DNA of 64,000 nt from positions 478,663-542,662 of the forward strand of contig JAWKSP010000001.1 of assembly GCA_041389025.1 (NCBI GenBank), read 5' to 3'. The notes under the pieces are model-generated. The model worked only from the letters and a program-made list of their open reading frames with translations. It did not search any database and was not told the origin of the DNA. Below, in pieces: positions 2,887 through 31,466 of this stretch (positions are counted from its first letter, which is position 1; each line of letters begins with the position of its first letter). The translations under genes and the position numbers were made by a program. The stretch comes from Minisyncoccota bacterium. GTDB lineage: Bacteria > Patescibacteriota > Minisyncoccia > Phycocordibacterales > UBA918.

Positions 2887-5406
2887 ATGGAAGAAAATAT
2901 ATTTACACCAAAGGTAAATTCTGTTAAGCAAAGTTCTTTAACAGATTTTTTATATAATTTTGCTAAGTTAGCTTTTGTGGCAACTATTGGTTTGCTTCCT
3001 GTTTGGTTTGTACCAGAAGTCTACACTTCATTAGGTTTTACTAAATCATATTTTGCACTGTCAGGTTTAGTTTTAATCCTTATTTTACTAAGCTTGTACA
3101 CATTTAGAAATGGGACACTAAGACTGTCACTACCTGTATCTGTCATTATTTTAGGTTTCTTTGTGTTGACTTCTCTTGTTTCGGCTTTACTGTCGGGAGA
3201 CAGGACAGATGCTATTTTGGGTGATAATTTTGAAATTCATACTGTCGGTTTTTTTATTTTGTTGTTTATTACATTAGTTGTTGGTTTTATCTTTGGTAAA
3301 GATAAGGTAGTTATAAATAAACTTTTTACTTTTCTTAGTGTTGCAACCTTAGTATTACTTATCACACAGGTTTTACGTCTATTTTTGGGTCCTGAATTTT
3401 TATCTTTTTCATTATTTGTGTCTGAGACTCACTCGTATTTTGGTAGTTTTAATGATTTGGCTCTATTGGCTGGACTAGTAGTTGTCGTATCCTTGATGGT
3501 TTTACAAAATGTTTATAAAAGTATTGTCAGTAAGCTATATTTAATTACTGCAATTTTGTTGTCTTTACTAATCATGTCAGTAGTTAATTTCTATCTGGTT
3601 TGGTTAGTGGTTGGGATTTTTTCTTTGGTTTTATTGTTACAACAATTATCTACAGACACTTGGTTTGGAAGTAAAGATAAAAAACCATTATCAAAATTTA
3701 ATACGACGTTAACTTTTATTGTGGCTTTAACTTCATTTATTTTCATAATTATCGGAAGTTATGTTGGAGAAAAGATTATTTCTAAAACTGGAATTAACTA
3801 TCTTGAAATAAGACCTTCTTTTAGTACAACAGTAAATCTGGCTAATAATGTATTTGAATATGATGCCCTTTTAGGAGTTGGTCCTAATCGATTTTCTGAC
3901 GCTTGGCGTCTTTATAAGGATCCAATGATTAACCAGACTGAATTTTGGAATACTGACTTCAATGCTGGTAGTAGTTTTTTATCCACTCTATTTGTGACTA
4001 CCGGAATACTTGGTGGATTGTTATTTATATTTTTTATTCTCTCTTTCTTATATTCCGGATACCGAACTTTGTTTAAAAACGAACTAGAAGAATACTGGTA
4101 TAAAATCGGTGTTGTTTCTTATGTGGTGTCCTTGTATCTTTGGGTTATGACTATTTTATATGTTCCAAGTAGTAGTGTACTGTTATTAACAGCTACTTTT
4201 ACCGGAATGGCTTTAGCGGTTTATATAAAATCAAAAAAAGATAAGTCTGTAACCATAGATATAAATGCAGTTGTGAATAAACATCAGGGTGTTTTGTTGA
4301 TTGTGATTTTACTAATCACTAATATAGCTATGATTTATTCTTACATTGTGGTTACTAAACAATATTTAGCTCAAACTACATACGCTAAAACTTTGTTAAA
4401 TTACAGTTCTTATAATGAGACAGATATAGATTTAGTCCTACAGAAATCTCAAACATGGTTTGCACAGGATACTTTTGTAGCTGAGCGGGCAAAATTAAAA
4501 TTGGCTAAAGTTAATAGTCTTTTGTCTATACAAGAACCAACTAAAGAACAGGAAGAGGAATTTAGAGTTACCTTAGCTTCTGGAGTGGCTTTGACTGAGC
4601 GGGCAATTATTTTGGATCCAACCAATCCTTATAACCACGCATTATTGGCAAGTTTTTATGCTCTTTTAAATCCACCTAAAGACAGTGATATTTCGATAAA
4701 AAAAGAAACTGAATTAAATCAACTGTTTACTTTAGATCCAACTAATCCGAGTCATTATGTTTTGTTTGCTCAGCTATCGGCTCGGTTTGGTGACGCCTCA
4801 ACTACCAGACTGTATCTAAATAAGGCTATTAACCTTAAGAATGATTATACTGAAGCTTTATTTTTATTATCACAGCTGGATATTGCCGAGGGTAACACAG
4901 AGTCAGCTATAAAGACTACTAGAACCATTGCAAATGTAGAATCGAGCAATCCTACTAGACAGTTTCAATTAGGTATTCTATTATCCGCTAGTAATGATAT
5001 AGATGGAGCGATAAAGGCATTTGAACGAGCGATTGCTTTAGATAATAATTACGCCAACGCTCGTTATTTTTTAGCACTATCTTATCTTGATAAGGGAGAG
5101 AAGATGATGGCTTTAGAACAGTTAAACTTAATTTTGGTTTCTAATCCTGATAATGAATCTTTAAAGCAAGTGATTAAAAATATTGAGGATGATAATTTTT
5201 CAAGTATCAACCAAGATCTTGGAGTTCCGGTTGAAGATGTTGATTTAGTTAATCAAGAAGAGGACGTAACTGTTTCTTCTAAATTTCCAGATACAGATTT
5301 GGTTACCTCTTTAAATCAGGGGGCGACACAAGAACAAGTAGTTGAAAAGGAAGCAGTAAATGATCCTGTAGTACCTGAAACTAAAAATGAGACAGATGAG
5401 TTGTAA
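2887..5406 (+). CDS. Polytopic membrane protein (O-antigen ligase/Wzy_C-like N-terminal region, ~12 TM) with a C-terminal TPR-repeat domain
   Basis: ~450 aa of repeated hydrophobic helices followed by ~350 aa of TPR-like repeats (AxxxxxAL, NxxYAxARYFLALSYL). This architecture is commonly annotated O-antigen ligase family + TPR. Confidence 0.55.
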   Translation: MEENIFTPKVNSVKQSSLTDFLYNFAKLAFVATIGLLPVWFVPEVYTSLGFTKSYFALSGLVLILILLSLYTFRNGTLRLSLPVSVIILGFFVLTSLVSALLSGDRTDAILGDNFEIHTVGFFILLFITLVVGFIFGKDKVVINKLFTFLSVATLVLLITQVLRLFLGPEFLSFSLFVSETHSYFGSFNDLALLAGLVVVVSLMVLQNVYKSIVSKLYLITAILLSLLIMSVVNFYLVWLVVGIFSLVLLLQQLSTDTWFGSKDKKPLSKFNTTLTFIVALTSFIFIIIGSYVGEKIISKTGINYLEIRPSFSTTVNLANNVFEYDALLGVGPNRFSDAWRLYKDPMINQTEFWNTDFNAGSSFLSTLFVTTGILGGLLFIFFILSFLYSGYRTLFKNELEEYWYKIGVVSYVVSLYLWVMTILYVPSSSVLLLTATFTGMALAVYIKSKKDKSVTIDINAVVNKHQGVLLIVILLITNIAMIYSYIVVTKQYLAQTTYAKTLLNYSSYNETDIDLVLQKSQTWFAQDTFVAERAKLKLAKVNSLLSIQEPTKEQEEEFRVTLASGVALTERAIILDPTNPYNHALLASFYALLNPPKDSDISIKKETELNQLFTLDPTNPSHYVLFAQLSARFGDASTTRLYLNKAINLKNDYTEALFLLSQLDIAEGNTESAIKTTRTIANVESSNPTRQFQLGILLSASNDIDGAIKAFERAIALDNNYANARYFLALSYLDKGEKMMALEQLNLILVSNPDNESLKQVIKNIEDDNFSSINQDLGVPVEDVDLVNQEEDVTVSSKFPDTDLVTSLNQGATQEQVVEKEAVNDPVVPETKNETDEL

Positions 5407-12051: not shown

Positions 12052-13866
12052 ATGAAATTAAATTCTGTCTTGCAAAAAGCTTTTAAGAAAACTAAGGATA
12101 AACTCAAAAAACATCGTAAAGAAATTGGTAAAAATCTTTTATACTTAAGCTCTTTATTGTTAATCGCCATGATTGTTATTGGGTTTAAATTGTTTTACCC
12201 GTATGAATTTTTTGTTGCTTTGATTTTCTTAACTTTGATTTTACAAAGAATTTTTAAGCTTATTTTACTAAGTAAAAACACCATAACACAATCCAAAGCA
12301 TTTTCATTAATTAGAAAAATTAGTTTTAAGTATAAAAAGACAGTATTTTTACTACTGTTTTTAATTTTACTTTTCTATGTCTTGCTCAAGGTTTTACCTC
12401 AAGATAACCGACCTTTTGCAGATATGAATGAAGAAAAGGTTGCGGAATTAGTTGACACTAGTTTAGATATATCTGCCTTGGATTTGGATTATTTGGAAAT
12501 TACTGCTAACACCCTGCTTGAAGGTGGTCTTTTGGACAAGGATGAATTAACCGCTGATGAGGTTCTAAAACTACATAGTGATTGGAATGAGTTTTTAAGG
12601 GCAATAAAACAATCTGAAGACCTAACCGATATTCATCGTTATTTTGGTCAAATATCGTATTTTTCAACACCAGAAGCTCATACCAAGTCTTTCTTTATTG
12701 CTTATACTTTGTATTTGAAAAAGTATGAAATGGTGCAAAAGGTAATTGCTAGAGTTGATAACAACGAAAGAGTTTTAAAATCCTTAAATGAATATTCAGA
12801 AGTTTATGGAGCAAAAAATTCTTTTTACAATATTCAATCACTATTAGTTAATAGAGATACACTTTTACGCAGAAATCTTGGTCGTTTATACGGAATATTC
12901 TTGTTAAAAACGATCGATACGTCAGATTTTGGTGAGGATTTTAACGCTTTGGTACGTTCTGGTAATAATAGTCATGATTATCTACTTAAAAACTCTAAAC
13001 AGACGGTCAAGATATATACCTATAAGCTTAGTAGTGATGTAGAAAGTGGGTTGTTTAATAGTTGGTTTCCAATTCAGAAAAATGTGGCTGATGTGATGGG
13101 TAAGATTGAGTTATCTACAAGAAATGAGACTTTTATTACAAGAGAACAAATAGCAGATATGAAACCAAGTTTGCAACCAGGGGATATTTTTGTGCAAAGA
13201 CGCAATTGGCATTTGAGTAATGTTGGTATTCCAGGGTTTTGGCCACACGCTGCTTTGTATTTGGGAACTTTAGAGGAAGCTGATAAATTCTTTGCGCCGT
13301 CATTCCCTTATCAAGGTTATGAGACATACAATGATCTTTTAAAAAATGTTTATCCTGATTTTTATGAGGACTATATAATGCGTGACACCAAAGGTGATCA
13401 ATTGGCGGTAATAGAAGGTAAGGCTCCAGGAATTATTCTCCAATCTTTAGAAGAATCAGCGACGGCAGATTATTTAGGAGTTTTACGGGCTAAAAAATTA
13501 GAAAATAAAGATATTTTACAAGCTGTACTTAGAGCGATTGGTAATTATGGTAAACCATATGATTATAATTTTGACTTTGAGACCAGAGATGAGTTGGTTT
13601 GTTCAGAATTGGTCTATGATGCTTATCTACCGTCTGAAGGGAAGAGTGGGCTTCATTTTGACCTAACTATTTCTTCTGGTCGAAAAATAGTCTCACCAAA
13701 CGATATGGTAAAAAAGTTTTATGAGGAACGGGGAATAGTAGATCAAGAATTAGAATTTGTTTACTTTATTGATGGCAATGAAGAGTTGAAAAACGCTACT
13801 CCAAAGTATGAAAACGCCTTTATGACCAGTTGGACTAGATCAAAGTTCTCTTCGTTGCAGGAGTAA
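12052..13866 (+). CDS. Membrane-anchored protein with a C-terminal YiiX/YebB-like permuted papain-fold (NlpC/P60 superfamily) amidase domain
   Basis: N-terminal TM helices. C-terminal region with an ELVCSELVYDAY catalytic-Cys motif plus GxxxH/D elements characteristic of the YiiX family. Confidence 0.55.
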   Translation: MKLNSVLQKAFKKTKDKLKKHRKEIGKNLLYLSSLLLIAMIVIGFKLFYPYEFFVALIFLTLILQRIFKLILLSKNTITQSKAFSLIRKISFKYKKTVFLLLFLILLFYVLLKVLPQDNRPFADMNEEKVAELVDTSLDISALDLDYLEITANTLLEGGLLDKDELTADEVLKLHSDWNEFLRAIKQSEDLTDIHRYFGQISYFSTPEAHTKSFFIAYTLYLKKYEMVQKVIARVDNNERVLKSLNEYSEVYGAKNSFYNIQSLLVNRDTLLRRNLGRLYGIFLLKTIDTSDFGEDFNALVRSGNNSHDYLLKNSKQTVKIYTYKLSSDVESGLFNSWFPIQKNVADVMGKIELSTRNETFITREQIADMKPSLQPGDIFVQRRNWHLSNVGIPGFWPHAALYLGTLEEADKFFAPSFPYQGYETYNDLLKNVYPDFYEDYIMRDTKGDQLAVIEGKAPGIILQSLEESATADYLGVLRAKKLENKDILQAVLRAIGNYGKPYDYNFDFETRDELVCSELVYDAYLPSEGKSGLHFDLTISSGRKIVSPNDMVKKFYEERGIVDQELEFVYFIDGNEELKNATPKYENAFMTSWTRSKFSSLQE

Positions 13867-13928
13867 GGTTAAATTACAGAAAGCCCTTACCTTCGGTCAC
13901 CAAAAACTAGCTAAACGCTAGTTTATTT

Positions 13929-13948
13929 TGGTGCCCTCGGCAGGAATC
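13929..13948 (-). repeat. Orphan 20-nt copy of the tRNA-Arg 3' end (T-loop to CCA)
   Basis: GATTCCTGCCGAGGGCACCA on the minus strand, identical to 14055..14074 of the intact tRNA 108 bp away. Confidence 0.6.
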
Positions 13949-14054
13949 CCTTTAAGGCCGGAGAAATGCTCGTAAACATCGCTTTTCTCTTCGATTCCTG
14001 ACGAAAGCAAAATTATTTGCTTTCTCCTCAGGCACCATTAAAAATTCTTTTTAA

Positions 14055-14129
14055 TGGTGCCCTCGGCAGGAATCGAACCCACATTTCCTCCTTAGGACGG
14101 AGTAGTTCTATCCATTGAACTACGAGGGC
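14055..14129 (-). tRNA. tRNA-Arg (anticodon CCU)
   Basis: Minus strand GCCCTCGTAGTTCAATGGATAGAACTACTCCGTCCTAAGGAGGAAATGTGGGTTCGATTCCTGCCGAGGGCACCA. Cloverleaf folds with a 7-bp acceptor, D arm GTTC/GAAC, anticodon loop GUCCUAA, T-loop TTCGATT and encoded CCA. Confidence 0.8.
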
Positions 14130-14286
14130 ATGTAATAATATTTGCACAGAGTTCGATTCCAACGGAATCGATTCTTACAGAATCTGTACAGGTTGTCGGT
14201 ATTTTACTTCCTAACGTCGTAAAATACCAGTCAACCTTCTTCGACAGTCTACTTAAGACTGTCTCAGCCCACACGTCCTCCTGATA

Positions 14287-14320
14287 GACGGAGTAGTTCT
14301 ATCCATTGAACTACGAGGGC
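14287..14320 (-). repeat. Orphan 34-nt copy of the tRNA-Arg 5' half (acceptor through anticodon-loop position 34)
   Basis: GCCCTCGTAGTTCAATGGATAGAACTACTCCGTC is identical to the first 34 nt of the intact tRNA-Arg and then diverges (TATCAGGAGGACG...). No complete cloverleaf. Confidence 0.6.
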
Positions 14321-14390
14321 TGTCTGAAATGTTTTTGTACTTTATCATAATCTGGGAAAATTGGCAGGGGATTGTTATACTTACTAGACT

Positions 14391-14690
14391 ATGTCTACAT
14401 ATCAAGATAATGATGAAAATGAAATTAAAGATTTAATCAAAGAAAACCAGCGTTTACTGATTGAAAATAATCAACTTCTGAGACAGATGCGCCGCCACTC
14501 CATCATTGGGGCAATCTTCCGTTTTTTATGGTTTGTCTTAGTGATAAGTATTCCTGTTTATATCTACTTTCAGTATGTTCAACCAAACTGGGAAAATTTA
14601 ACTACAAAAATCAATGAATTAGAACAAACTTCAGCTGAGGTGGGGGAGATTAAGGAGTGGTTTAACTCACTTAATTTGCGACCTAGGTAA
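14391..14690 (+). CDS. Hypothetical small membrane protein (coiled-coil N-terminus, one TM)
   Basis: 99-aa ORF between the tRNA genes with a hydrophobic segment (IIGAIFRFLWFVLVISIPVYIYF). No clear Shine-Dalgarno. Confidence 0.4.
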   Translation: MSTYQDNDENEIKDLIKENQRLLIENNQLLRQMRRHSIIGAIFRFLWFVLVISIPVYIYFQYVQPNWENLTTKINELEQTSAEVGEIKEWFNSLNLRPR

Positions 14691-14774
14691 GCTTAAGTAA
14701 CATAGATAAATGTTTTAAACGGTTGAAATAAATGCTTAAACAGGCTAGAATAGCCTGCACAGTAATAAAGAAAA

Positions 14775-14850
14775 GCTTGGGTAGCTCAGTTGGTAGAGCG
14801 CTTCCCTGAAGAGGAAGATGTCGTCGGTTCGAGCCCGACCCCAAGCACCA
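14775..14850 (+). tRNA. tRNA-Phe (anticodon GAA)
   Basis: GCTTGGGTAGCTCAGTTGGTAGAGCGCTTCCCTGAAGAGGAAGATGTCGTCGGTTCGAGCCCGACCCCAAGCACCA. Canonical cloverleaf with encoded CCA. Confidence 0.88.
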
Positions 14851-14899
14851 GTATATAAAATGCCTCCACATGGAGGTGTTTTATATACTGGTGCTTGGG
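14840..14899. repeat. 21-bp perfect inverted repeat containing the tRNA-Phe 3' end, flanking a GC hairpin (probable terminator)
   Basis: cccaagcaccagtatataaaa ... (gcctccacatggaggt) ... ttttatatactggtgcttggg. Confidence 0.55.
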
Positions 14900-15029
14900 A
14901 AGAAAGGTGTTAATACACCTTTCGTTCGGGCTCGCACCACAAGAGTATTTCCATTTTTATACTTCTTTCAGTCGTTAAAAATTAGGTCAAAAGCGCAGTC
15001 ATGTCGCACGGAGCGGAGCGAGTACGACA

Positions 15030-16470
15030 GACGAGCTGGCTATGAAAAAGCTGTGAACAACTAAAATATTAAGTTTTCTAACCCTTTCTATTTTTTGATA
15101 AGATATTATGAGAGACTTTGGCAACACGAAGGTAATCAAGTATCCTTCACACTTGGTTTCGTAACCCATGCGGCTATCCGTGCTAAAAAGCACAAGGTGT
15201 CATACGTATTACGGGGTCTCAATCGGGGTCACGGTGTCACAGCACCACCCTCGCTACGAGATCTCCACTCTTCGTGTTGCCAGAATCTCCCATATCAGAA
15301 AAGGTCCGAAAGGGCTCTTTTCTTTTAACCAGATACCACATGATAGTGAGCATCTTTCGAGCTAAAGCAACCCGAGCCACCTTAGAACCCTTTTTATCTT
15401 TGATTCTCGAATAGAATGTATATAACCTACCGGCTGAAGGTCTGATCTGACAGGCTGCTTCCACCATAATAGATCGCAGAAACGGTGAGCCTTTTCTGGT
15501 AATGTGTCCAAATCGCAACTTCCCTCCAGAAGAATGAGATGAGGATACTAATCCAGCGTAACTCGCTAACTGTTCTGGAGTCTTGAATCTTTCAAAATCT
15601 CCAACTTCAGCAATAATGGTTAGAGCGGTTAGTTCAGCTACACCAGGTATACTCATCAATACCTTGGCACGTTCATCTATTTTAGCTTTTGATTTGATAA
15701 TAACATCAAGTTCTTTGACTTCACTATTCACAAAATCAATGGTTTTTATTAATGATTCAACCTCTTTTTTATATAACTTATGGAAAACCTGATTCTTGAT
15801 CCAGAGTTGTCCTTGTTTTCCAAACAGGTCAGTAACAGGACTTTCTAAACCATGTTTCCAGAGAATGCTATGGACTCGATTCTTAGTTCTGGTTCGTAAA
15901 CGAATATAGAACATTCGCCAACGTACCAACTCACGCAGGTCTCTAACAGCCGGTGGTGCTAGGTATGCAGTGGCGATAAAATCTATACGAAGTAGTTCAG
16001 CGATAATTTCCGAGTCAACCTTATCGTGTTTAAGTCGACTTGCTGCAATAAGTTTAGTCTTAGCCGGATCTATCAGTTTAACTGTTATTCCAGTACTCTC
16101 CAGTACTTCAGCAAACCAACCCCATTGTGATACCGGTTCAATTCCGGCACATACTTTACTTATATTGATTGGTATCTGTTTTAGAGTAATAAGAGTATCT
16201 TGTTTGGTGGTTGGTACCTTACCTTGAAAAATTCTATTCTTATTTGAATCAATAAGTGTCCAATATCCGAAGGATTTATGCAGATCAATTCCTAAATAAT
16301 ATTCATTCATAGTACTAGTGTTACATTAATAATAATCAACTATTAATATCGACCTATGTATAGGCTAGCACTTTTTCATGACATCGGGGTCGAGAGTACT
16401 TAGTAAAATATAAGCTTGCGAAATATTTTACTTAGTAACTCGTGACCGAATCCTACCGCCGGAGCTAGAC
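15030..16470 (-). mobile_element. IS110-family insertion sequence; boundaries approximate
   Basis: Contains a DEDD-type IS110 transposase flanked by ~200 bp 5' and 3' non-coding regions. Both flanks end in cggagc-containing sequence (15018-15030 cggagcggagcgag; 16456-16468 ccgccggagc). No terminal inverted repeats, as expected for this family. Confidence 0.6.
15237..16310 (-). CDS. IS110-family transposase/recombinase (DEDD RuvC-like N-domain + C-terminal Transposase_20 domain)
   Basis: N-terminus MNEYYLGIDLHKSFGYWTL (GIDxxK). SIPGVAELTALTIIAEVGDFERFKTPEQLASYAGLV helix-hairpin-helix motif typical of IS110/IS902/IS1111 transposases. Confidence 0.85.
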   Translation of the reverse strand: MNEYYLGIDLHKSFGYWTLIDSNKNRIFQGKVPTTKQDTLITLKQIPINISKVCAGIEPVSQWGWFAEVLESTGITVKLIDPAKTKLIAASRLKHDKVDSEIIAELLRIDFIATAYLAPPAVRDLRELVRWRMFYIRLRTRTKNRVHSILWKHGLESPVTDLFGKQGQLWIKNQVFHKLYKKEVESLIKTIDFVNSEVKELDVIIKSKAKIDERAKVLMSIPGVAELTALTIIAEVGDFERFKTPEQLASYAGLVSSSHSSGGKLRFGHITRKGSPFLRSIMVEAACQIRPSAGRLYTFYSRIKDKKGSKVARVALARKMLTIMWYLVKRKEPFRTFSDMGDSGNTKSGDLVARVVL

Positions 16471-16500
16471 AAATTAAGTTTTTTATGATTTAATCAGGGT
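16311..16500 (-). ncRNA. Candidate IS110 5' non-coding (bridge-RNA-like) region; unverified
   Basis: 190-nt non-coding leader upstream of the recombinase gene with a 15-bp near-perfect stem (tacttagtaaaatat / atattttacttagta). In characterised IS110-group elements this position encodes the bridge RNA. Confidence 0.2.
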
Positions 16501-16535
16501 TGATTTCCATTTTCTAAATAAGAAGGAGGTGTACC

Positions 16536-17150
16536 TTGGAAATAATTAATTGGATAGTTATATCCACCATAATCCTACTGGTTTGGATAGTTAATTACAG
16601 TGTACTTGCCTGGAAACGGGAAGTATATCCAAATCCTGTGAGTTGGTTCGTATGGACTGTAGTTGGCTTAGCCCTTTTTCTCACTGCCGAAGCATCTGAA
16701 GCAAAAGAAGTTTACTTTGCTACAATTATTTCAGCAGCAGGTCCTGCTATAATACTTGTTATTATTCTCCTTCGTGAGACAAACAGAATCTACAGCTTAT
16801 CATTACGTGAAAAATTATGTCTCACATTCGCACTTATAGGATATAGTTTATGGTTTATTTTAGGAGAAAACCCTGAATTAGCTCAATGGTCACTGTACTG
16901 GATGATTTGTGTTGATTTTATAGCACTTTGGCCTACACTTGAGCAAGCAATTAAAAAACCAGAATCTGACAAGCCTATTCCATGGATAATATTCGGTCTT
17001 GGTTACGGTATAACTGGATTAGCAATCATAGACCATACTGTGGCAAACTGGGCATTACCAGCCTATATGTTTGCAGGCTCATTGGCGGTAGCAATACCTC
17101 TGGTATTAATAAGGATAAAGAAAAGAGTCTTACTTAAAGAATGGTGGTAA
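16536..17150 (+). CDS. Hypothetical 6-TM membrane protein
   Basis: TTG start preceded by a strong SD (aagaaggaggtg). 204 aa, mostly hydrophobic helices. Confidence 0.55.
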   Translation: MEIINWIVISTIILLVWIVNYSVLAWKREVYPNPVSWFVWTVVGLALFLTAEASEAKEVYFATIISAAGPAIILVIILLRETNRIYSLSLREKLCLTFALIGYSLWFILGENPELAQWSLYWMICVDFIALWPTLEQAIKKPESDKPIPWIIFGLGYGITGLAIIDHTVANWALPAYMFAGSLAVAIPLVLIRIKKRVLLKEWW

Positions 17151-17216
17151 AAGCCGCACCCTAGAAAACCAAATCTACGGAGGCGGTTTTCTTTTTTATA
17201 CCATATTCCCCACCAC

Positions 17217-17247
17217 ACAAGTTCGAACACCCTCCACCCAGCGGAGC
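17217..17247 (+). repeat. 31-bp direct repeat, copy 1 (acaagttcgaacaccctccacccagcggagc), immediately followed by a TTGACA -35 box
   Basis: 30/31 identical to 18442..18472. Part of a CCAGCGGAGC-core repeat family that also occurs at 17786-17798 (degenerate), 17841-17852 (inverted) and 17955-17973, and resembles the IS110 left-flank sequence 16451-16468. Confidence 0.6.
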
Positions 17248-17335
17248 TTGACATAGAACTAATTTGAGTGTTTAATGACACCCAAGCAAACACGGGTGTG
17301 TTTGCATTTGTTCTACTCAAAATCGGAGGTATCCA

Positions 17336-17623
17336 ATGGCAGTCAGTCAGGAAGTCAAGGATTTCAAAAACCCGTCTGGGTACTGGAAGCACGATGGTTC
17401 CTTCTCGGTCGAGCTGGTGCCAGATGCGGACAAAAGCATGGTGCCAACCTCGGCAGAAATCAGGGGCGACACCGTGCACGTCTGTCACGGACGTATCAAG
17501 CAAACGATGGGGAGTATCCAGCTCTATTCCTACGAATCCCAGTTCTGCTGGGGCTATCCTCGCATCAAGGTCATCCGAGATGGTCAGGGCAAGCTGTTGT
17601 GGGTGAACTACAACTACCGCTGA
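17336..17623 (+). CDS. Hypothetical 95-aa protein encoded in a GC-rich (~54% GC) segment; likely horizontally acquired
   Basis: Consensus-like promoter (TTGACA-17-TTTAAT at 17248-17276) and SD (ggaggt) precede the ATG. Normal amino-acid composition. Followed by a GC-rich hairpin terminator. Confidence 0.5.
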   Translation: MAVSQEVKDFKNPSGYWKHDGSFSVELVPDADKSMVPTSAEIRGDTVHVCHGRIKQTMGSIQLYSYESQFCWGYPRIKVIRDGQGKLLWVNYNYR

Positions 17624-17764
17624 GTACACTGCACTCGCTCGTAAGAAGTCGTTCGCTTCTCGCGGGCGATTTCTTTTTTACACACTCAAGTTCTGAACCA
17701 CTCTATTTTCAAACAAACCCAAAATACCACTTTGTTCTAATTCACGTTGTATACGAACCCAATT

Positions 17765-17840
17765 TACAGTTCTGAACGCGTCCAGCTGAGGGAGCATATA
17801 AAATCTTAGTCATGTGAAAGCGTGGCTTTTGATTTTAATG
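17765..17840 (+). repeat. ~75-nt repeat unit, copy B (degenerate 5' part; 3' part ggagcatataaaatcttagtca...gcgtggcttttg shared with 18463-18520)
   Basis: cagttctgaacgcgtccagctgagggagcatataaaatcttagtcatgtgaaagcgtggcttttg aligns with caagttcgaacatcctccacccagcggagcatataaaatcttaatcacgcccttgcgtggcttttg. Confidence 0.45.
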
Positions 17841-18037
17841 CTCCGCTGGAGAAAGTGCCCTGCGACACTTTCGTTAGGATTCGAAAAGCGCTTTGAGGTA
17901 TTTTAGAGCTTGCGAACAAAATATCCAAACACTGCACCGTCCATGTAATGGAAGAATCCTACCAGCGGAGCAAATATTGACAAGATTACTTTTATACTGT
18001 ATGCTATAAAAGTTGTTACTTAATTTCGAGGTGAACT

Positions 18038-18319
18038 ATGTTTAATCCTTTTTTGGCTTCAGAAAGTGCTAAAATCTTTCAAAATCTTTTAAACAAAGGT
18101 GAAGTACAAGACAGTGAAGCGGAGTCTTTGATTATTGATTTTCTCACAAACAAATGCAACTACAAAGAAGTAACTCCTGAACTTAGGGAATTACTTGCCT
18201 TTGCCCTCGGATTCTTTTTAAAGGGCGCGATATCTAACAACGAAATAGAAAGAATTATGGGAATTAGATATTCTAAAATATGCTCAGACATTGCAAATGG
18301 ACATATAAAATTAAAATAA
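18038..18319 (+). CDS. Hypothetical 93-aa protein
   Basis: Preceded by TTGACA-17-TATGCT (17977-18005) and SD gaggtg. Low-GC, helical composition. Confidence 0.45.
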   Translation: MFNPFLASESAKIFQNLLNKGEVQDSEAESLIIDFLTNKCNYKEVTPELRELLAFALGFFLKGAISNNEIERIMGIRYSKICSDIANGHIKLK

Positions 18320-18441
18320 TAGAAAAAACAAGAGATAACACCTTCAGCAAAACATGGAGAACTACTCCTTCTGCTGAAGGTATTTACTTGAATACGTCAC
18401 ACAAAGATACATCATATCTAGTGTGGCGTTTTTTAAATCGA

Positions 18442-18472
18442 ACAAGTTCGAACATCCTCCACCCAGCGGAGC
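18442..18472 (+). repeat. 31-bp direct repeat, copy 2 (acaagttcgaacatcctccacccagcggagc), start of ~75-nt repeat unit copy C
   Basis: See 17217..17247. Confidence 0.6.
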
Positions 18473-18831
18473 ATATAAAATCTTAATCACGCCCTTGCGT
18501 GGCTTTTGGCTTTAAAACTTTCACCAAAGAAAATACTTTGTAGTATTTTCGTTATAACCCAAATACTATCTGCACATCCATACTGATAAAACCATGTATA
18601 AGGAAAATAACAGATAGGCGACTTAGTCTCTTACGAGCGTGAGCTGAGTCGCCTCTCTGTTATTTTATGTATAAATTGATTTAGCATAAGTACTGTCCAT
18701 AAAACTCATCTACCGAATCACTCTAATGCCAGATATGACTTAACTTTTTTTAATTTTAAATTTAGTAAATCTAAATATTCACAAATACTTTCTTGCTAGA
18801 TGATTTAAAAAATGTATAGTATACTTTACAT

Positions 18832-30803: not shown

Positions 30804-31466
30804 ATGAACATAAACATTGAAACCAGTTGGCAAAAAACTTTGACTAAAGAGTTTGAAAAACCGTATTTTAAAAAGCTGACTGACAAAGTTCGTGAGGCTT
30901 ATCTAAAAGAGGTTATTTATCCGCATCCTAAAAATATTTTTAACGCTTTTTCTCTTTGTCCATTTAACGAGGTGAAAGTAGTAATATTAGGACAAGATCC
31001 TTACCACGGACTTGGCCAAGCACACGGCCTTTGTTTTTCGGTACCAGACGGTGAAAAAATTCCACCCTCACTTAAAAATATTTATAAAGAAATCAATAAC
31101 GATCTGGGAAAAGAAATACCGGAATCCGGTAATTTAGGAAGGTGGGCTAAGCAAGGAGTGTTACTTTTAAACGCTACTTTGACTGTGCGAGCCGGCTACG
31201 CCGGCTCGCACCAAGGCCTCGGCTGGGAGACTTTCACCGACACAATCATCAAAACCATCTCTGAGCAAAAAGAGCACGTGGTCTTTCTACTTTGGGGACG
31301 CTACGCTCAAGCTAAAACTAGTCTAATAGATAAGAACAAACACCTCATCCTCACCGCACCACACCCCTCCCCACTTTCCGCTCACAACGGCTGGTTTGGT
31401 AGCAAACATTTCAGCCAAACCAACATCTACCTAAAAAAACACAACCAAAAACCAATTGAGTGGTGA
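30804..31466 (+). CDS. ung: Uracil-DNA glycosylase (family 1)
   Basis: GQDPYHGLGQAHGLCFSV water-activating motif, LLLNATLTV, and HPSPLSA C-terminal motif. ATG at 30804 directly follows the mutM stop. Confidence 0.88.
   Translation: MNINIETSWQKTLTKEFEKPYFKKLTDKVREAYLKEVIYPHPKNIFNAFSLCPFNEVKVVILGQDPYHGLGQAHGLCFSVPDGEKIPPSLKNIYKEINNDLGKEIPESGNLGRWAKQGVLLLNATLTVRAGYAGSHQGLGWETFTDTIIKTISEQKEHVVFLLWGRYAQAKTSLIDKNKHLILTAPHPSPLSAHNGWFGSKHFSQTNIYLKKHNQKPIEW

Follow-up and report, generated by a model that had tools for sequence, protein, structure and literature searches.

Cassettes of integrons generally lack promoters and are expressed from Pc, and their attC sites are imperfect palindromes with R''/R' cores (RYYYAAC...GTTRRRY); the integrase gene intI is optional in clusters of attC sites lacking integron-integrases (CALINs). 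Tyrosine integrases are classically recognised by direct repeats of transfer RNA (tRNA) 3′ ends, with the repeat starting in the T-loop. Members of the candidate phyla radiation (CPR, Patescibacteria) have tiny genomes with few recognised mobile elements, and their gain of flexible genes is poorly understood. Islands that are targeted to tRNA genes and bounded by tRNA fragments have been reported in Prochlorococcus as tycheposons (10.1101/2020.12.28.424599), and repetitive extragenic palindromes (REPs, including the composite BIME and REPIN forms) have been described as targets of insertion sequences (ISs) of the IS110 family such as IS621 and ISPpu9, in connection with seekRNA or bridge RNA (PMC11187229, PMC12288879). 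The present study concerns an array of small genes and palindromic DNA at positions 14851-18700 of a 64,000-nucleotide (nt) stretch from a Minisyncoccota bacterium (GenBank contig JAWKSP010000001.1, positions 478,663 to 542,662; hereafter the window). Our preferred reading, to which we give a probability of roughly 55%, is that the repeats in this array are att-like cassette boundaries derived from the 3′ end of tRNA-Asn, within an integron-like, tRNA-anchored hotspot, and that the array, downstream of tRNA-Phe, holds three single-gene cassettes among non-coding palindromic modules. No published description of such modules or cassettes was found in a literature search.

The array resembles integrons and CALINs in that its cassettes, each with a single open reading frame (ORF), are co-oriented and carry a recombination-type site at the 3′ end, beside a fixed primary insertion site. 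The cargo consists mostly of ORFans, structure is better conserved than sequence in the sites and modules, and, as in CALINs, no integrase is adjacent. It differs from integrons in that the site is a derivative of the tRNA-Asn 3′ end, the primary site is the end of a tRNA gene rather than attI, every cassette has its own promoter and terminator, and no IntI was found beside the arrays in scans of the window and of related loci. An attC identity was rejected for the 31-nt repeat of the array (the 31-mer), which is not an inverted repeat and has neither RYYYAAC nor GTTRRRY cores. With tRNA-targeted islands, including tycheposons and cis-mobilisable elements, the array shares partial tRNA 3′ ends as att repeats, tandem accretion beside a tRNA and flexible genes in a streamlined genome. 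By contrast, its units are single genes of 0.4-1.1 kb or non-coding modules of 135-175 nt, without integrase or replication genes, the modules occur at many different tRNAs, and those islands have no equivalent of the tRNA-end copy that is inverted and split by a hairpin.

Cassette Boundaries and Their tRNA-Asn Origin

The 31-mer (AAGTTCGAACRTCCTYCACCCAGCGGAGC), which contains the palindrome GTTCGAAC, is present at 17217-17247 and 18442-18472, and the two copies are identical at 30 of 31 positions. A previous sequence-only reading of the window had noticed these direct repeats, a longer unit with a second copy and the recurrence of a core nearby, and all three observations are upheld. The segments 17768-17838 and 18445-18515 share 72% identity across 71 nt, and the exact core CCAGCGGAGC occurs four times within 1.3 kb (17238, 17962, and 18463 on the forward strand and 17840 on the reverse strand); with at most one mismatch allowed, the window holds five matches against 0.75 expected, a number that none of 100 shuffles reached. 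The core is the 3′ end of tRNA-Asn, from the T-loop to the discriminator. In the copy GAATCCTACCAGCGGAGC, GAAT corresponds to the T-loop, CCTAC to the 3′ strand of the T-stem, and CAGCGGA to that of the acceptor stem, followed by G as the discriminator and by C74; the U1-A72 pair and G73 match those of tRNA-Asn. The 31-mer is alignable to the same region, with about 5 extra bases that destroy the T-arm; it is a diverged form of this tRNA-Asn 3′ segment and is conserved in metagenome contigs that are unrelated to one another. Direct repeats derived from tRNAs also form boundaries of 18 nt at 16448 and 17954 and, for tRNA-Arg, of 19 nt at 13930.

The origin of the core is seen most directly in metagenome contigs or loci retrieved for comparison, which are designated by L-numbers. 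In these relatives, intact tRNA-Asn genes end in the core sequence and are followed by the same repeats and the same 95-amino-acid (aa) gene (ORF95 in the window). L002 starts with the 3′ part of tRNA-Asn(GTT), a Rfam tRNA match ending in GGTTCGAATCCTGCCACCGGAGC; four tandem modules of ~175 nt come after it, each opened by this 18-mer, and the last of the five 18-mer copies is followed by TTGACA and an ORF95 homologue. In L008, a tRNA-Asn with a group I intron precedes a 39-nt direct repeat of the tRNA 3′ part, TTGACA, an ORF95 homologue and then copies of the 31-mer family around another small ORF, and L006 follows the same logic of arrangement. An intact tRNA-Asn lies at the array in L002, L008, L009, L012, and L064. 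The L008 intron (3735-4001; Rfam Intron_gpI, 68 bits) is located in the anticodon loop, and the tRNA was missed by ARAGORN; introns of this kind have been described (PMC13011429). A tRNA-Asn-like 3′ end near ~6534 of L112 (reverse strand) is without a called tRNA and possibly contains the same kind of intron.

Among the loci fetched for this analysis, the 31-mer family (0-6 mismatches, non-redundant) occupies 23 places, always with a terminator (T-run plus TATAC) upstream. Roughly half of these copies lead into a terminator and a module with no promoter, and the others into TTGACA after 0-6 nt and a small ORF. TTGACA-type promoters 0-6 nt past the site were observed in the window and in L002, L006, L008, L064, L094, L112, and L125. 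The co-oriented layout of promoter, one ORF, terminator and 31-mer is common to the three window cassettes, L112 and L064, and L112 holds an array of at least six 31-mer cassettes adjoining housekeeping genes (fmt, def, priA-like, and murA-like).

In relatives, the presence or absence of cassettes is junction-precise at the repeats, as judged from aligned contigs. L064 (identical to L113) and L009 (identical to L095) are 93-94% identical upstream, tRNA-Asn included. Right after the tRNA-Asn end (...CCGTCGGAGC), L064 has a 529-bp cassette (promoter, ORF133, terminator, 31-mer), and L009 has directly the terminator and module that follow the cassette in L064. Similarly, L016 and L012 share 98.75% identity over 883 bp downstream of the site, upstream of which L016 carries a cassette ending in the 31-mer and L012 carries tRNA-Asn. 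Identity between L019 and L028 extends across tRNA-Gly and two units, and the two contigs diverge right after the third direct copy. Furthermore, the 31-mer keeps CCAGCGGAGC where the resident tRNA-Asn ends in CCGTCGGAGC or CCGCCGGAGC, and the 31-mer therefore travels with the cassette.

In the window, the segment 16466-18472 can be read as three cassettes, carrying ORF204, the foreign ORF95, and ORF93, and one non-coding module, all on the forward strand. Cassette X (16466-17247) consists of a TAGACA-17-TTTAAT promoter at 16466-16494, immediately after the tRNA-Asn-type copy at 16448-16465, ORF204 (16536-17150), which encodes a membrane protein without a family match, a terminator, and 31-mer A (17217-17247). 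Cassette Y (17248-17795) consists of a TTGACA-17-TTTAAT promoter (17248-17276), a hairpin in the 5′ untranslated region (17286-17305), ORF95 (17336-17623), a terminator (17653-17680), a decayed site at ~17686-17715 and a terminal 31-mer-like site at 17766-17795. A type-a module (17796-17971) separates it from cassette Z (17972-18472), which has a TTGACA-17-TATGCT promoter (17977-18005), ORF93 (18038-18319), a terminator, and 31-mer B (18442-18472). Because the array reads as cassettes and modules in order, the two 31-mers are the ends of cassettes X and Z, and what had been taken for a single 1.2-kb segment between repeats resolves into two cassettes (ORF95 and ORF93) plus a module. As to the two near-consensus promoters proposed for it, the one with TATGCT matched 10 of 12 positions in a promoter scan; the one with TTTAAT is present, although its −10 hexamer is weaker, without the conserved A at position 2, and was not listed by the scan. 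The promoter of ORF204 is a third of the same kind. Of the three readings offered earlier, att-like repeats of an integrated cassette is the best supported, except that there are several cassettes instead of one, the left 31-mer ends a third cassette (ORF204), and the tRNA-Asn origin had gone unrecognised. The general conclusion of a recombination hotspot with promoter-bearing cargo holds.

ORF95 has a GC content of 0.542 in a window of 0.368, in line with the ~54% and ~37% estimated before, and its GC at third codon positions (GC3) is 0.719, compared with 0.309 +/- 0.053 (maximum 0.461) in the 44 long ORFs of the window. Because of this composition, ORF95 can be regarded as a recently acquired foreign cassette. 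Only nine homologues were found among 5.8 billion clustered proteins. A GGAGC site and TTGACA always precede the homologues of ORF95 in the loci examined. The proteins of ORF95 and of the neighbouring C92 peptidase gene have identical counterparts in a metagenome-assembled Candidatus Paceibacterota bacterium. The confident AlphaFold model of ORF95 (predicted local distance difference test score, pLDDT, 90; predicted template-modelling score, pTM, 0.82) is a small, mostly beta fold, for which Foldseek gave no fold match in the PDB (best E = 0.63). The hairpin in the 5′ untranslated region is followed by ATTTGTTC and is kept in the L002 homologue (~845-870); it may be a cis-regulatory element of the cassette. 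Long ORFs that overlap ORF95 in other frames (188 aa, 17063-17629, reverse strand; 166 aa, 17275-17775, forward strand) are probably artefacts of its high GC. Nine cassette ORFs, mutually unrelated, gave no match in Pfam, PHROGs, or PADLOC except a sub-threshold DUF3012, and look-ups of the exact ORF95, ORF204, and ORF93 proteins returned no record.

Palindromic Modules Linked to tRNAs

The non-coding modules have a common architecture downstream of tRNA-Phe, tRNA-Arg, and the tRNA-Val of L001. The tRNA 3′ end is followed by an apical hairpin, formed by a terminator or by a GAACGAAGTGA-type loop. The acceptor 3′ strand then recurs in inverted orientation, ahead of a perfect hairpin (hp1) whose foot is GAAA/TTTC. 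After hp1 come an inverted T-arm copy, a spacer and a direct copy of the tRNA 3′ end. A scan of metagenomes for the hp1 foot plus inverted T-arm pattern yielded at least 120 loci, which on sequence grounds constitute a large, widespread family of tRNA-linked palindromic modules in Paceibacterota (CPR). Among the matches listed, the stem is perfect over 9-10 bp in 115 of 129. Of the 94 units for which the context sufficed, 58 have a tRNA on the same strand 18-60 nt upstream, the neighbouring tRNAs represent 16 anticodons, and the inverted acceptor copy agrees with its own tRNA at 8.2 of 10 positions and with other tRNAs at 5.6 of 10. About 10 of 60 tRNAs in the same loci that were unselected by the pattern also carry a module. 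Module length is 135-185 nt, the spacers fall into a few homologous types, and identical tandem units are found in L019, L028, L032, and L088. Modules also occur away from tRNAs, because L131 and L132 (16-20-kb loci) contain no tRNA gene; Asn-type modules with another hp1 foot (AGCGAGTGCAACTCGCGCGT) lie there between small ORFs (~13379 and 15068 in L131, with equivalents in L132). In short-loop variants (L025, L031, L040, L053, L068, L079, L010, and L088), an apical GAACGAAGTGA or GAGCGAAGCGAG motif with a CGAAG or CGCAG core is located between the tRNA end and the inverted copy. These cores resemble GNA mini-hairpins of single-stranded DNA, which are very stable.

The structure of the modules is supported by an alignment (A3) of 21 type-a units, including window 17838-17973. 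Five helices are supported, with 95.1% of cells paired versus 71.6% in shuffles and 39-52% when partners are slid, and both sides have changed in 163 cells versus 48 in shuffles. Across 755 cells, G·T and A·C mismatches are equally frequent (15 each), and none of the 330 variable pairs of hp1 is G·T; the terminator regions, unlike the module helices, show a plus-strand excess of G·T. Strong covariation without an excess of G·T over A·C points to a constraint on DNA, acting through hairpins on either strand or templated copying, rather than on RNA. In Rfam 15, nothing meaningful was found at E<=5 in 13800-18800, where only two tRNAs reach the gathering score, and related loci gave nothing besides tRNAs and the L008 intron. 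Several identities of the modules were considered and rejected: a hammerhead or other ribozyme (GAAA/UUUC is paired throughout and CUGAUGA is lacking), a primer-binding site of the retroviral type (the orientation is wrong and a reverse transcriptase is missing), and a minus-strand tRNA gene (no T-stem 5′ strand).

Two classes of described elements come near to this structure. The attC bottom strand, the CTX-phi attP, and the ends of IS200/IS605 elements likewise place a hairpin beside sequence complementary to a neighbouring target on the same strand, and the modules, in their sequence, share with such folded single-strand sites strict Watson-Crick pairing and, in some units, GNA-type apical loops (CGAAG/CGCAG). 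They differ in that the complementary segments are 10 and 13 nt instead of 4 nt, and no HUH, Xer, or IntI enzyme was identified here. Tandem interspersed guide RNA (TIGR) arrays comprise ~36-nt units with two 8-12-nt spacers and box C/D motifs, adjacent to a Nop-domain Tas gene (PMC12045711). Both systems are found in CPR bacteria and consist of tandem units with a variable palindromic stem between two guide-like segments, although modules are 135-185 nt long and their two inverted segments are contiguous on one target strand, whereas TIGR spacers address opposite strands. Box C/D motifs are likewise not seen in the modules. TIGR arrays were rejected as an identity, given the wrong period and the lack of a Tas gene, or of any recurring family besides Fpg, next to the modules.

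In the window, the array begins on the forward strand at the 3′ end of tRNA-Phe(GAA) (14775-14850). The segment 14851-14934 (inverted repeats I2 and I9) contains the terminator hairpin, the inverted acceptor copy TGGTGCTTGGG (14889-14899), hp1 (14902-14923), and the inverted T-arm copy GTTCGGGCTCG. A type-b spacer follows and is interrupted by the IS: its left part (ACGGAGCGGAGCGAGTACGACAGACGAGCT) occupies 14935-15037, with uninterrupted homologues in L106 and L006, and its right part (GGGGTCGAGAGTACTTAG...CTTAGTAACTCGTGACC) occupies 16386-16447, homologous to L011, L052, L093, and L106. The direct tRNA-Asn-type copy GAATCCTACCGCCGGAGC (16448-16465; repeat family D16) closes this module. The type-a module, a member of the A3 alignment that is 87.6% identical to the module of L098, comprises a terminator hairpin (17796-17839), the inverted acceptor copy GCTCCGCTGG (17840-17849), hp1 (17851-17872), the inverted T-arm copy (17873-17885), a spacer and the direct copy GAATCCTACCAGCGGAGC (17954-17971). 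After cassette Z lies a degenerate module (18473-18700), in which the direct copy is missing and the inverted T-arm copy has decayed. It retains a terminator-type hairpin and hp1 (18529-18550), with a large terminator hairpin (18584-18686; inverted repeat I1) behind them; msrAB is located downstream of the module.

The element within the type-b spacer is an IS110/IS1111-family IS (15038-16385, reverse strand), which is shared with L001 at 100% identity. Its transposase (15237-16310, reverse strand; 357 aa) has the Pfam domains DEDD_Tnp_IS110 and Transposase_20, its subterminal inverted repeats are ATGAAAAAG and CTTTTTCAT, and its 3′ non-coding region (~15034-15300, reverse strand) is strongly structured (folding z = -4.78 versus shuffles). 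A structured non-coding region of the same kind is found in IS1111-type elements with seekRNA (PMC11187229). Both IS copies, in the window and in L001, lie between CGAG(C/T)(T/C) and GGGGTCG of a type-b spacer (CGAGCT and GGGGTCG in the window), and the uninterrupted target is present in L106, L006 and seven other units; by this comparison the IS is a secondary invader whose target is a conserved sub-site, CGAGCY/GGGGTCG (the slash marking the junction), in one module spacer. Within the non-coding RNA, GACCCCGAT reproduces the left junction, with the left flank joined to the IS end, and the region carries GACCCCG twice, once within GACCCCGAT. The 3′ non-coding region is a candidate seekRNA with the module spacer as its target, and an IS1111-type element with a seekRNA-like non-coding RNA uses the modules as a landing pad. 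REPs and REPINs are dispersed palindromic units with an associated RAYT transposase. The likeness to REP, BIME, and REPIN targets lies in extragenic palindromes with compensatory changes at the DNA level, in the position of an IS110/IS1111 element at one specific site and in a structured IS non-coding RNA that carries junction-matching sequence. Unlike REPs and REPINs, the modules are tRNA-anchored and tandem, and their palindrome arms copy the adjacent tRNA 3′ end and are not constant genome-wide.

Further features are found outside the array. A module lies 3′ of tRNA-Arg(CCT) on the reverse strand (13929-14054). A hairpin that takes in the acceptor 3′ end precedes its inverted acceptor copy, a perfect 9-bp hp1 (14003-14024) and the inverted copy of the T-arm; beyond the spacer, 19 nt of the tRNA 3′ end are repeated directly (13930-13948), ahead of a terminator. 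Beside it, 14130-14320 (reverse strand; repeat family D2) holds a pseudo-tRNA-Arg and a type-a spacer homologous to the first module of L002. Its 34 nt at 14287-14320 are 100% identical to positions 1-34 of tRNA-Arg(CCT), a duplicated 5′ half that continues in diverged form to the T-stem, where a hairpin and the type-a spacer (14130-14286) replace the T-loop; a second tRNA-Arg copy seems to have taken up a module in its T-loop. At 31185-31211, ~400 bp downstream of fpg, a GC-rich perfect 12-bp palindrome (GTGCGAGCCGGC tac GCCGGCTCGCAC) is present in this genome of 37% GC.

Possible Mechanism and Competing Explanations

Under the preferred reading, cassettes would be inserted and lost by site-specific recombination between the 31-mer of the cassette and a 3′ end of the tRNA-Asn type, and the junction would lie within or beside CGGAGC (positions 68-74). 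Each cassette starts with its own sigma-70 promoter right after a "...GGAGC" site and ends with a terminator and the conserved 31-mer. The modules would regenerate the target end so that the array can keep accepting cassettes, and the recombinase would act in trans, encoded outside the array. Because no recombinase was found nearby, we infer this mechanism, including the recombination chemistry, the identity of the enzyme, and a possible substrate of folded single-stranded DNA.

Several points weigh against this reading. The window has no tRNA-Asn gene, and its array lies downstream of tRNA-Phe. No recombinase was found in or next to any array examined: the best 25 of the 46 families that Pfam gave for 32 window ORFs include none, scanning 722 ORFs from ~130 loci for tyrosine-recombinase motifs gave one match, which is not adjacent to an array, and no protein family except Fpg recurs next to modules across 120 loci. 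Fpg itself was rejected as the associated enzyme, as fpg is merely syntenic with tRNA-Asn; in relatives it is the divergent neighbour of that tRNA. The inverted copy and hairpin are unexplained by ordinary integrase att sites, and a single sequence-specific integrase would not explain modules that match 16 different tRNAs. Finally, the presence/absence evidence comes from relatives, with none from the window strain at 17247 or 18472, and its pairs are metagenome assemblies with junctions at repeats, for which reason chimeric joins are possible, although each arrangement is found in two independent assemblies. The neighbouring C92 peptidase gave no synteny anchor (its closest relatives are 55-58% identical and not syntenic), and exact-pattern scans of species-representative genomes with the 31-mer and the tRNA-Phe 3′ end returned no match each.

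The array might instead be a set of relics of ordinary tandem integrations into tRNA genes, by phage-like, tycheposon-like, or integrative and conjugative element (ICE)-like elements that have lost nearly everything except partial tRNA att repeats and a few cargo genes, with no dedicated cassette system. Arrays of tRNA fragments are indeed known from Prochlorococcus islands, the direct tRNA-3′-end repeats of the window and L002 start in the T-loop as with tyrosine integrases, and the missing local recombinase fits decay. We nevertheless consider this explanation unlikely, as the cassette design is tight and uniform, the 31-mer is conserved across genomes with differing tRNA-Asn, the internal structure of the modules is conserved and covarying rather than that of random remnants, and two module patterns and the 31-mer have no exact match in 2.9 million viral contigs. 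An RNA function is a little more doubtful still: the modules, and possibly the sites, would be genes for structured tRNA-like RNAs, co-transcribed with tRNAs and processed by RNase P or RNase Z, and the repeats would be kept by that function. From its inverted copy to its direct copy, the unit forms a closed structure of five helices that covary strongly, its terminal helix mimics stacked acceptor and T stems, and an intrinsic plus-strand terminator ends each unit. The symmetric G·T and A·C counts and the G·T-free hp1 speak for a constraint on DNA, however, there is no space for a promoter between units, the 31-mers lie between terminator and promoter and are probably not transcribed, an IS insertion is tolerated, and there is no Rfam match.

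Two further explanations concern the repeats themselves. That the 31-mer is a promoter-proximal operator or insulator of a small-gene regulon, with arrays formed by duplication, would agree with its internal palindrome and with its location, about -40 to -70 as counted from the TTGACA promoters; it is very improbable when about half of the copies precede a terminator and module, the site stands at varying distances (0-6 nt) from the -35 hexamer and can be exchanged for a true tRNA-Asn 3′ end at the same junction, and the cassette ORFs are unrelated. The first proposal of the sequence-only reading, that the core is the preferred target of the neighbouring IS110 recombinase, now has hardly any credibility and is already largely refuted. 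In its favour, repeated palindromic elements are typical insertion sites of the IS110 family, an 18-mer resembling the core is found near the IS, and two identical IS copies do occupy the same sub-site of one module type within the composite repeat family. The 18-mer match of 16/18 stands, but at 16448-16465 rather than 16451-16468, and it does not abut the element: the IS ends at ~16385, between CGAGCT and GGGGTCG, which leaves a gap of 62 nt, and the L001 junction is the same. The uninterrupted target is known from other loci, the four intact cores of the window are unoccupied, and the IS non-coding RNA, which matches the junction, shares no stretch of 7 nt or more with the 31-mer or the core. 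Since the junctions lie in the type-b spacer and the non-coding RNA matches at the junction only, the IS targets the module family and not the CCAGCGGAGC core. The second proposal, solo IS ends, is not supported, as the IS termini (GATGTCATGAAAAAG... and ...CTTTTTCATAGCC) are unrelated to the repeats.

The inverted copy that tracks each tRNA could be the feature that takes this system beyond an integron-like or tycheposon-like hotspot. We suggest tentatively, as a minority possibility, that the modules are a new class of self-guided DNA elements, in which a split guide complementary to the adjacent tRNA 3′ end would direct insertion 3′ of tRNAs. The guide would be formed by the inverted acceptor copy, the perfect hairpin, and the inverted T-arm copy, as folded single-stranded DNA or RNA, and a host-encoded or distant enzyme would carry out the insertion, after which the target is regenerated. 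If this holds, the modules would represent a nucleic-acid-guided, integron-like platform that captures promoter-bearing cassettes in CPR, and inverted copies acting as guides would be a new programmable DNA-targeting principle. The preferred reading of a tRNA-anchored cassette hotspot, if true, would provide a concrete route for gene flux in CPR, based on cassettes anchored at tRNA 3′ ends, insulated and self-expressed ORFans, and a common structured module that copies its tRNA end, and it would explain a class of unannotated intergenic DNA beside CPR tRNA genes.

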